DNA of 64,000 nucleotides, taken from sequence record KP682386.1, one strand, 5' to 3'. This DNA comes from Escherichia phage PA36. The position numbers were made by a program. Positions 27,001-30,000 of this stretch are shown here, in pieces (position 1 is the stretch's first letter; each line of letters begins with the position of its first letter).

Positions 27001-30000
27001 CCCGGGTGGATGGTAAGCCTGTTATTCCTGGCATGAAGCTGTCGAAGGAAAAATGCGACCGGGTTAACGCCATTGAGCGTGATAAGGCGCTGGCATGGGT
27101 GGAGAAAAACATCAAAGTGCCGCTGACCGAACCCCAGAAAGCGGGGATCGCGTCATTCTGTCCGTACAACATTGGTCCCGGTAAGTGTTTCCCGTCGACG
27201 TTTTACAGACGAATTAATGCAGGTGATCGAAAAGGTGCCTGCGAAGCTATTCGCTGGTGGATTAAGGACGGTGGCAGAGACTGCCGTATTCGTTCAAACA
27301 ACTGTTACGGTCAGGTATCCCGTCGTGACCAGGAGAGCGCGCTGGCGTGCTGGGGAATCGACAGATAAGAAGAATATTTTGCTGAAAAATGAGGTTTGCT
27401 TACATGGACGGATAACACGAAATCCTGCAAATTGGCAAAATGTAAGTGAATAAAGTCAAAACAGTTGTTTAACACTCAGGCACCGTAATGATGCCTTTGT
27501 CATTTCTGCGCATCTCACGCGCATCTCACAACACAGAACCTTTCAGGATGACCCTTGAGGATACCGGTTTGGCTGTCGGTGCCTTTCTGTGGGCTGGATT
27601 CCTGTGAGACAAGGTTCATCACTAAAAGGAAATAACCGATGAATATGATGGCCGTGCCGTTTCACGGCAACTCTCTTTATGTAGTTAACCATAATGGCGA
27701 ACCATACGTTCCCATGAAACCTGTCGTTGCGGGGATGGGGCTGGCCTGGCAATCACAGTTGGCTAAGTTAAGACAGCGTTTTGCGTCAACTATAACGGAA
27801 ATCGTTATGGTTGCTGAGGATGGGAAACAACGCAATATGGTGTCCATGCCACTTCGAAAACTTGCCGGCTGGCTACAAACCATTAATCCCAACAAAGTAA
27901 AACCCGAAATCCGCGATAAGGTCATCCGGTATCAGGAAGAGTGCGACGATGTTCTTTACGAGTACTGGACGAAGGGTTTTGTCGTTAATCCCCGTAAAAT
28001 GAGCGTGATGGAAGAACTCAACCAGGCTTGTGCTGACATGAAACGGGATAAAAACATTGCCAGTGTGTTTGCTACCGGGCTGAATGAGTGGAAACAGGTT
28101 AAAGCCGCGCATGTATCAAAAATCCGTACGCTGGTAAATGAAGCGAATATGCTGATTGATTTTGTCCTGGCTGATACAGGCAAAGGGAAAATAACAAAGG
28201 CGGATTGATGGGGTGGCTAATGATATCAGATAAACTCATAACGCTGGTGAAGAGCCTCTGTGTACTTGTCGGCATTTCATTTTTAGTCATGCTGGTTGCC
28301 ATTTTCTTTTCCACCGCCTGGCGAGTCCTGACGTTATCGGGACTGGTGGGGTGAAAGAGAGATGAACCGTGTTCTGTGTGTGGTGATTATTGTCCTGGCG
28401 GTTGGCTATGGTGCGCTGTGGCTGGCAACAAACCATTACCGTGACAACGCGCTCACCTACAAAGCGCAGCGCGATAAAAAAGCCAGAGAGCTGGAACAGG
28501 CGAATGCCACCATTACTGACATGCAGGTGCGCCAGCGTGATGTTGCTGCGCTCGATGCAAAATACTCGAGGGAGTTAGCCGATGCGAGAGCTGAAAATGA
28601 AACTCTGCGTGCTGATGTTGCCGCTGGTCGTAAGCGCCTGCGGATCAACGCCACCTGCTCCGGTACCGTGCGTGAAGCCACCGGCACCTCCGGCGTGGAT
28701 AATGCAACCGGCCCCCGACTGGCAGACACCGCTGAACGGGATTATTTCATCCTCAGAGAGAGGCTGATCACTATGCAAAAACAACTGGAAGGAACCCAGA
28801 AGTATATTAATGAGCAGTGCAGATAGAGTTGCCCATATCGATGGGCAACTCATGCAATTATTGTGAGCAATACACCCGCGCTTCCAGCGGAGTATAAATG
28901 CCTAAAGTAATAAAACCGAGCAATCCATTTACGAATGTTTGCTGGGTTTCTGTTTTAACAACATTTTCTGTGCCGCCACAAATTTTGGCTGCATCGACAG
29001 TTTTCTTCTGCCCAATTCCAGAAACGAAGAAATGATGGGTGATGGTTTCCTTTGGTGCTACTGCTGTCTGTTTGTTTTGAACAGTAAACGTCTGTTGAGC
29101 ACATCCTGTAATAAGCAGGGCCAGCGCAGTAGCGAGTAGCATTTTTTTCATGGTGTTATTCCCGATGCTTTTTGAAGTTCGCAGAATCGTATGTGTAGAA
29201 AATTAAACAAACCCTAAACAATGAGTTGAAATTTCATATTGTTAATATTTATTAATGTATGTCAGGTGCGATGAATCGTCATTGTATTCCCGGATTAACT
29301 ATGTCCACAGCCCTGACGGGGAACTTCTCTGCGGGAGTGTGCGGGGATAATCAAAAACGATGCACACCGGGTTTTCTCATTTTTCACGAGATGGGAGCGA
29401 TTTCCCGCGAAGCCGCCTGTCCGGTGCGGTGGTGGAAGAAACCGGATAAAACAACCGCATTGTGCAAATATCGATCAAATATGGTGCTGCTGTGTGAAAT
29501 CTGAAAAATCACAGCGGTCATTATGCATCAGTTTTTAACACAGGACGTCAGAACGTGACATGGCAAAGCTGGACTGGAAAAAGCTGGAGCAGGCATTCCG
29601 ACGCGAACATGCCGAAACGGGAATAACATTACTGGACTGGTGCCGGAAGAAAAAGATTAATTACAACACCGCCAGAACCCGTATAAAAATGGGCAAAATC
29701 GATCATGAAATTGATCATAAAACCGATCATGAAATCGATCATGACATCTCAGATGAAGAACCCTGCAATGACGCGGGTTCCGGCGATGAAAAATGTGCAA
29801 AAAACTCTGAAAAAAACTGCGCAAATTCGGCAGAAACGAAACGGATTCGTGGTTCCCGACTTTTACCACCTTCAAACGCTTTTTCTCAGCGAAACACCCA
29901 CGCCGTAAGACACCGTGGATATGCGAAGTATCTTGAGGCAGATAACCTCATGGATGATGCGTCCGACATGGTGCTGTTCGATGAACTGGTGTTCACCCGG

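Follow-up and report, generated by a model that had tools for sequence, protein, structure and literature searches.

A phased GATC array inside the small terminase gene of 933W-type Stx phages as a candidate P1-related pac element

The small terminase gene and its GATC array

The DNA analysed here (hereafter the window) is a stretch of 64,000 nucleotides of Escherichia phage PA36 (sequence record KP682386.1). The 64-kb window corresponds to a 933W/Sp5-type Shiga toxin 2 (Stx2) prophage of E. coli, as indicated by the identity of its small terminase gene (terS) to that of Stx phages, by its matches to PHROG families and by the order of its large terminase (terL) and P22-type portal genes. The subject of this report is a group of four hexamers, (C/T)GATCA, spaced 12 bp apart (29700-29741, no strand assigned), which lies inside terS and is proposed to be a recognition element of the packaging site (pac), bound by the small terminase (TerS) and a target of Dam methylation. 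The gene itself (29560-30366, + strand) encodes a protein of 268 amino acids (aa) that matches PHROG 370, "terminase small subunit", with an E-value of 4.8e-125. Its DNA is 100% identical to that of 933W (L0112, annotated as "putative small subunit terminase"), VT2-Sakai, Min27 and more than 100 further Stx-converting phages.

The GATC sites of the array start at 29701, 29713, 29725 and 29737, that is, at a spacing of exactly 12 bp inside terS, as the initial annotation of this DNA had it, and Tandem Repeats Finder (TRF) describes the region 29696-29748 as a repeat of period 12 with 4.4 copies and 82% matches. In gene coordinates the array runs from nucleotide (nt) 141 to 182 of terS, and the domain of aa 1-46 is encoded immediately before it. 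Its units (ATCGATCATGAA / ATTGATCATAAA / ACCGATCATGAA / ATCGATCATGAC) have an invariant core, (C/T)GATCAT, between flanks that vary. The initial annotation had given the repeat as four copies of GATCATGAAAT; the four units are present, with an exact match to that sequence in only two of them, and the peptide read from them, KIDHEIDHKTDHEIDHD, is indeed encoded (aa 46-62); the array itself corresponds to aa 47-62, where a disordered linker starts. GATCAT occurs four times in the linker-coding DNA and not once in the remainder of terS, while the pattern [CT]GATCAT[AG]A has four occurrences in the 64 kb, all of them within the array.

GATC is strongly under-represented in the window, where 162 sites are present and dinucleotide shuffles predict 261 ± 13, and the array is the sole spot where more than two GATC fall within 40 bp. 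When 162 sites were placed randomly, at least four came to lie within 40 bp in 1.65% of the trials, and under a first-order Markov model, which has a higher GATC count, this proportion was 4.7%. The four sites are, however, not independent events, because they derive from tandem duplication of one 12-bp unit. The GATC depletion is fairly even along the window, at 15-25 sites per 8 kb, despite the Dam-family methylase that the phage encodes.

An AlphaFold2 (AF2) model of TerS, built with a 42-sequence alignment, comprises an N-terminal three-helix domain, a disordered linker (aa 48-112, with a predicted local distance difference test score, pLDDT, <50) and long C-terminal helices. The N-terminal domain (aa 1-46; 29560-29697, + strand) is helix-turn-helix (HTH)-like, its helices being predicted at aa 6-20, 24-31 and 35-41 with pLDDT 74-87, and both alignment and model assign to it the form MAKxDW...TA(R/K)xx(I/L)K. 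The third of these helices provides the predicted recognition helix, YNTARTRIK (aa 35-43; 29662-29688, + strand), in which T40 and R41 stand where relatives with TGCGCA arrays have R-Y/H. Pfam has no family for TerS or TerL, although HTH_23/28/29 gave matches, all sub-threshold, to the N-terminal domains of some family members. Sequence searches of the PDB with the whole protein and with the N-terminal profile returned no meaningful match, and a Foldseek comparison of the AF2 model with the PDB produced only coiled-coil look-alikes (E >0.3), which were driven by the C-terminal helices and are uninformative for the HTH.

Hexamer arrays in related terminase genes

Homologues were gathered from GTDB genomes (24 loci) and from IMG/VR (80 loci), and a TerS-HTH hexamer-array family is defined here from relatives of PHROG 370, 51 and 1711. 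In nearly all relatives, one short motif, usually TGCGCA, is present in 4-9 copies in the DNA just 3' of the HTH domain. The density of TGCGCA among 48 distinct loci with the helix ARR[YH][IL]K is 22.7 per kb in the linker and 0.28 elsewhere in the locus, an enrichment of about 80-fold. Each ARR[YH][IL]K locus has 5-9 TGCGCA distributed over two to three frames, read as nnT-GCG-CAR (x-A-Q), rTG-CGC-A (V/M-R) or TGC-GCA (C-A). Likewise, the 14-mer AAAAATGCGCAAAT of the relative GER2 is translated as K-N-A-Q-I at one place and as E-K-C-A-N at another. Since the same hexamer is used in several reading frames, the arrays of the relatives must be seen as DNA elements and not as peptide repeats. Relatives L009-L112 have lineage-specific hexamer arrays at about nt 120-400 of terS, in two to three reading frames.

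The motif differs with the helix. Helices of the type ...(S/T)ARR(Y/H)(I/L)K go with TGCGCA, those of the type ...AKRYIK with TGCGAA(TTCGCA) and those of the GVTEGAIRKRAKK type with GTACGC, while one plasmid-borne homologue has TGGAAAC; helix types beyond ARR[YH] are found with GTACGC, TGCGAATTCGCA or TGGAAAC arrays. The pairs ARRYIK/TGCGCA and AKRYIK/TGCGAA are one residue and one base apart. The GATC array of 933W sits in the very slot that is occupied in relatives by the TGCGCA, GTACGC and TGCGAA arrays. A tblastn search of GenBank phages with L024-type TerS, made to find a relative with a mapped pac, matched no well-studied phage.

GATC hexamers are also found in this slot outside the 933W lineage. 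A 54-kb viral contig, L124, encodes a full-length TerS homologue (4957-5808, - strand; E 3e-19) and a 933W-type TerL, and its terS has a non-tandem array after the HTH, with TGATCA at gene nt 300, 313, 325, 337 and 349, in two frames (V-I, D-Q, D-Q, D-H, D-H) and with unrelated spacers. Three homologues of PacA, the small-terminase equivalent of phage P1, carry five or six TGATCA, exactly 12 bp apart, right after the HTH: L150 (657-1934, - strand, on a P1-sized contig of ~92 kb), L265 and L282. The PacA homologues with such 12-bp arrays have 27% identity to PacA (E 8e-30). Taken together, L124 and the PacA homologues make the 12-bp phasing of GATC hexamers after the HTH domain a recurrent arrangement. 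In the PacA homologues the TGATCA hexamers form a single cluster, as opposed to two in P1.

Co-variation of recognition helix and array

The association between helix and array was tallied among the 120 best protein clusters. Arrays encoding D-H/D-Q (GATC) accompanied the helices ARTR, ARIR and ARTQ in all 11 clusters of this kind and the ARR[YH] helices in 0 of 90, the latter having 5-8 AQ-type elements instead. The ARTQ group corresponds to Salmonella prophages, of which L308 has the DNA AAAAGTGATCAAAAAAGTGATCAAAAAAACGATCAC, with three GATCA at 12 bp. This array lies in the same AAAAGT...AAAA setting as AAAAGTGCGCAGAAA of GER2, and only the hexamer core differs, CG being replaced by AT. In the Salmonella ARTQ arrays H and Q interchange while GATCA is constant, which means that the DNA core is conserved and the peptide is not.

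The two halves of the protein were compared between these groups. The identity between 933W and the E. coli ARRY types is 0.76-0.78 in the N-terminal and 0.92-0.95 in the C-terminal part; between Salmonella ARTQ and Salmonella ARRY proteins it is 0.86-0.89 and 0.85-0.87, and between the two GATC lineages, 933W and Salmonella ARTQ, 0.68 and 0.65, respectively. Each GATC lineage is therefore nearest, in both halves, to a neighbour with a TGCGCA array and not to the other GATC lineage, so that helix and array either switched twice or moved as one small module. Either way, the helix is tied to the array. The 933W-type HTH with its GATC array is found on two TerS core types (L056-L058 and the window), and the GER2-type HTH with its TGCGCA array likewise on two.

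The representative of the largest 933W-type TerS cluster (P0002, 558 members) has TARIRIK, with Ile at position 40, in place of TARTRIK, and its four-copy GATC array is unchanged. A universal code leading from helix residue to hexamer was considered and rejected, as P1 (ARRYLR) and L124 (GRRYLQ) use TGATCA. The L308 locus (1-20816), from a Salmonella Bonariensis prophage, combines a 933W-type terS (3x GATCA), terL and a P22-type portal gene with a replication gene of the P2 GPA type and the gene of a Q antiterminator.

Kinship with PacA and the pac site of P1

TerS and PacA have 24% identity over 98 aa by BLASTP, and hhalign aligned a 12-member family profile to PacA-type N-termini with a probability of 97.85% (E 6.5e-13). 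PHROG 1711, which is the PacA family (PacA match 4.2e-202), is matched by 933W TerS at 3.1e-5 and, reciprocally, PacA-type proteins match PHROG 370 at 1.9e-4 to 1.9e-9. Judged from these sequence comparisons, the N-terminal domain of TerS is homologous to the P1 PacA N-terminus. The kinship is limited to this domain, the remainder of TerS belonging to another family (PHROG 370 versus 1711).

In the P1 record, the GATC sites of pacA are at gene nt 195, 202, 214 and 229, and then at 325, 337, 348 and 376. An IHF (integration host factor) site and cuts are annotated at about nt 255-284, with the cuts at about nt 275-284. The two clusters (nt 195-229 and 325-376) hold seven or eight hexamers in total, which are read as M-I, D-H, D-Q, D-H, and then D-R, D-H, V-I; Asp-His is simply the product of TGATCA in one frame. 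They are the TGATCA/G hexamers of pac as defined by experiment, reportedly described by Sternberg and Coulby in 1987-1990 and by Skorupski and colleagues in 1994. Unmethylated P1 pac is not cut, whereas fully methylated pac is. The P1 record also contains the GATC methylase gene dmt and an oriR with five annotated Dam sites. Synonymous loss of the P1 hexamers lowered the titre about 9-fold (PMC10028697).

Further elements and neighbouring genes

Directly 5' of the GATC array stands TGGGCA (29690-29695, AAAAATGGGCAAAA), a degenerate TGCGCA-type element whose slot holds CTGCGCAAA in GER2-type relatives, and which was paired with 29789-29802 in a repeat search (family D4). Two distal TG(T/C)GCAAA elements in the Cys-Ala frame, common to GER2-type relatives, are found at 29794-29801 (TGTGCAAA at 29794) and 29818-29825 (TGCGCAAA at 29818), and a gap of 52 bp (about 29742-29793) separates them from the array. 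The GATC sites nearest to the array are at 29473 and 30646. At 29461-29479, ~100 bp 5' of the terS start, TGTGCAAATATCGATCAAA consists of adjacent TGYGCA-type and YGATCA-type elements and was paired with 29794-29812 in the repeat search; it may belong to the recognition region as an outlier, or be a product of chance.

The terL gene (30347-32053, + strand; PHROG 2 and PHROG 24361) overlaps with its 5' end the 3' end of terS, and encodes a large terminase (TerL) of the "933W-type headful" class, the "933W type" being classed as headful in TerL phylogenies (PMC7317114). It is followed by the gene of the portal protein (32053-34197, + strand; PF16510 P22_portal, E 1.4e-128). Farther upstream, at 16414-16941 (+ strand), the initial annotation had placed a Dam-type methyltransferase. 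This identification holds, as the product matches PF05869 at E 6.4e-65 over profile positions 1-167 of 169, as well as PHROG 111; on this profile match it is a phage-encoded DNA N6-adenine methyltransferase of the Dam family, with putative GATC specificity.

A candidate pac element and its alternatives

Phage 933W is an efficient, generalized transducer of host markers, and the failure to sequence the ends of its DNA was taken to indicate terminal redundancy (PMC3752737). Generalized transduction and terminally redundant DNA imply that 933W must have a pac-type start. A P1-type GATC pac is known, while a 933W-type pac is defined nowhere in the searchable literature, where only the terminase label "headful (933W type)" is found. 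The array described above is probably the TerS-binding recognition part of this pac, related to that of P1 and probably sensitive to Dam methylation. It is the comparison with relatives, and not the pattern alone, that makes the GATC array meaningful, given that 12-bp GATC tandem repeats are common in viral DNA.

Several observations weigh against this assignment. When IMG/VR was scanned for GATC x4 and GATCA x4 at 12-bp spacing, GATC x4 was common in viral contigs, and the matches listed were mostly ordinary four-codon repeats (D-P, D-Q, R-S etc.), many of them in giant-virus contigs. For this reason the bare pattern was rejected as a diagnostic, such scans being informative only after filtering for non-tandem spacers, and the weakness of the pattern as evidence leaves the case to rest on the relatives. 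In 933W itself the four GATC copies are a young tandem duplication and share one reading frame, and multi-frame copies are obtained only if the TGGGCA/TGYGCA elements are counted too. The number of GATC units varies with the allele, from three (L002, L004) to four, five (L058) and seven (P0001/L310), with one or two in partial assemblies, and a drift from 3 to 7 (possibly 1-2, in those partial assemblies) is as expected from neutral slippage. The co-variation counts refer to clusters, which are not independent events and may represent perhaps two switches, and the rule linking helix to motif fails for the distant members P1 and L124. In addition, 933W has no second GATC cluster flanking a cut, as P1 has, its distal elements being TGYGCA, and a consensus scan of both strands of 29400-30000 found no IHF consensus (WATCAANNNNTTR) at up to one mismatch. 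In the Salmonella prophage L308, which has a GATC array, no PF05869 dam gene was present in the examined 10 kb upstream. With one case for each array type, a phage dam was found neither in GER2 (TGCGCA array) nor in the examined part of L308; such a gene thus seems not to be an obligatory companion of GATC arrays.

The literature adds to these points. Searches on Stx pac, PhageTerm and lateral transduction found no virion-end mapping or mapped pac for 933W-type phages in the searchable literature, nor any end-mapping, binding or mutational data for the 933W phage group. The paper on the T1-like phage TLS makes no link between GATC and pac. The 933W-like phage Lys19259Vzw was classified by PhageTerm as "Mu-like", since its read termini carried host DNA (PMC7946995); if its prophage is of the pac type, this result could reflect packaging before excision, in a manner similar to lateral transduction.

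The main alternative, which is considered unlikely, takes the array for a neutral repeat, expanded in frame by slippage within an unconstrained disordered linker, GATC being incidental and having no role at the DNA level. The near identity of the four copies in the same frame, their polymorphic number and the predicted disorder of the linker are all in its favour, as are the many unrelated viral genes with GATC-containing 12-bp tandem repeats among the matches listed and the presence of GATC in a few percent of random 12-mers. Slippage alone, however, would hardly place the repeat in the slot of the multi-frame hexamer arrays of relatives, nor make the array type track the type of recognition helix in two backgrounds (E. 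coli 933W and Salmonella). It is also at odds with the non-tandem, 12-bp-phased TGATCA arrays of L124 and the PacA homologues, and with the fact that the array stands in a GATC-depleted genome.

Less probable still is a Dam/SeqA-type or autoregulatory site, to which TerS, SeqA or some other protein would bind so as to time or limit terminase expression or activity, with packaging starting elsewhere. Phased GATC clusters are classic SeqA/Dam targets (oriC, P1 oriR), and the co-variation with the TerS helix speaks for TerS binding while being silent on its purpose. Yet a scan for promoters and terminators gave no signal overlapping the array. As far as is known, a TerS site within or beside terS serves packaging recognition in every characterised case (P1, P22, SPP1 and lambda), which also speaks against a regulatory role. 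In P1, moreover, an array of the same kind is pac (PMC10028697).

Finally, a function of the (I/T)DH(E/K) peptide repeat itself (metal binding, or contact with TerL or the portal), with GATC as a by-product of Asp-His codons, has very little probability, for although Asp/His-rich repeats can bind metals and the peptide is conserved within the 933W lineage, relatives have unrelated peptides in its place (SAQK, GTQ, ANSQ), H and Q are swapped while GATCA stays fixed, some L124 and P1 hexamers read V-I or M-I, and the array-encoded stretch has AF2 pLDDT <50.

Proposed mechanism and significance

In the mechanism proposed for the candidate pac element, the GATC hexamers would be the 933W lineage's version of the array carried by the linker-coding DNA of terS. 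The N-terminal HTH of the TerS oligomer would bind this array and so label phage concatemers for the initial headful cleavage. By this proposal, the binding of TerS would start packaging. Host Dam and phage Dam would supply methylation of the array, and since the N6-methyl groups would be central in each hexamer, recognition or cleavage is proposed to depend on the methylation state, as in P1; by this analogy, packaging from the 933W array may be methylation-dependent. Also by analogy with P1, the cut may fall in the stretch of ~50 bp (about 29742-29793) that separates the GATC array from the distal TGYGCA elements.

A broader model may be put forward tentatively, with somewhat less than even confidence. 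Enterobacterial, Aeromonas and P1-like terminases would encode pac in their linker DNA as arrays of palindromic TGNNCA read by the HTH, and a swap of one or two helix residues (ARRY to ART[R/Q]) would, in combination with a new core (TGCGCA to TGATCA), re-program the specificity. This switch, made at least twice, would put packaging initiation of Stx phages under Dam control, as in P1.

Phages of the 933W/Sp5 type combine the Stx2 genes of E. coli O157:H7 with efficient generalized transduction. A defined pac candidate would help to predict in which direction, and how far, host DNA around Stx prophages is mobilised, possibly by lateral transduction, and would enable the design of packaging-defective or packaging-competent constructs. 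Dam is known to affect 933W lysogeny, and the candidate allows asking whether it also gates 933W packaging. More generally, multi-frame arrays that track the helix offer a means of predicting from sequence only, for many prophages, both the specificity of the terminase and the pac sites, and the array family constitutes a natural system for the co-evolution of a DNA-binding helix and its sites inside one gene.

Comparison with known packaging and GATC systems

The R-sites of lambda cosB, bound by gpNu1, and pacL/pacR of SPP1, bound by G1P, resemble the 933W arrangement in being short elements, present in several copies, located in or beside the gene of the oligomeric TerS that recognises them through an N-terminal HTH. 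Unlike those of 933W, these elements are longer and for the most part located outside the coding region, they are not targets of Dam, and lambda has cos ends.

The pac sites of P22/Sf6-like phages are similar in that they, too, belong to headful phages with a P22-type portal and lie within the coding sequence of terS. In contrast to the 933W array, however, the pac of P22 consists of one asymmetric site of ~22 bp that contains neither GATC nor a repeat array (sequence quoted in PMC11447400), and the TerS family of P22 is unrelated by sequence to that of 933W, no Pfam or PHROG overlap being seen.

The SeqA/Dam clusters of oriC and P1 oriR have in common with the array the close phasing of GATC sites that a protein can read for their methylation state. 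They differ in being origin or promoter elements that lie outside terS and show no co-variation with a terminase helix.

The closest parallel is P1 pac, to which the initial annotation had likened the repeat. The two layouts are not the same: the 4 + 3 hexamers of P1 are irregularly spaced (7, 12, 15; 12, 11), with an IHF site and the cuts between the two groups, whereas 933W has one perfectly phased tandem cluster of four, accompanied by two or three elements of the TGYGCA type, and lacks an IHF consensus. The large subunit of 933W is of the 933W type and not PacB, and TerS and PacA differ outside the N-terminal domain. Thus, the analogy does not extend to the paired clusters and the IHF site of P1. 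In its core it is reinforced, on the other hand, by the tie between array and recognition helix and by the arrangement itself, with several GATC-centred hexamers, mostly Asp-His/Gln codons, standing at the equivalent place in the gene of the small terminase or its counterpart, right behind a homologous N-terminal HTH domain, in two headful, generalized transducers that each encode a Dam-type/GATC methylase (PMC10028697, PMC3752737).

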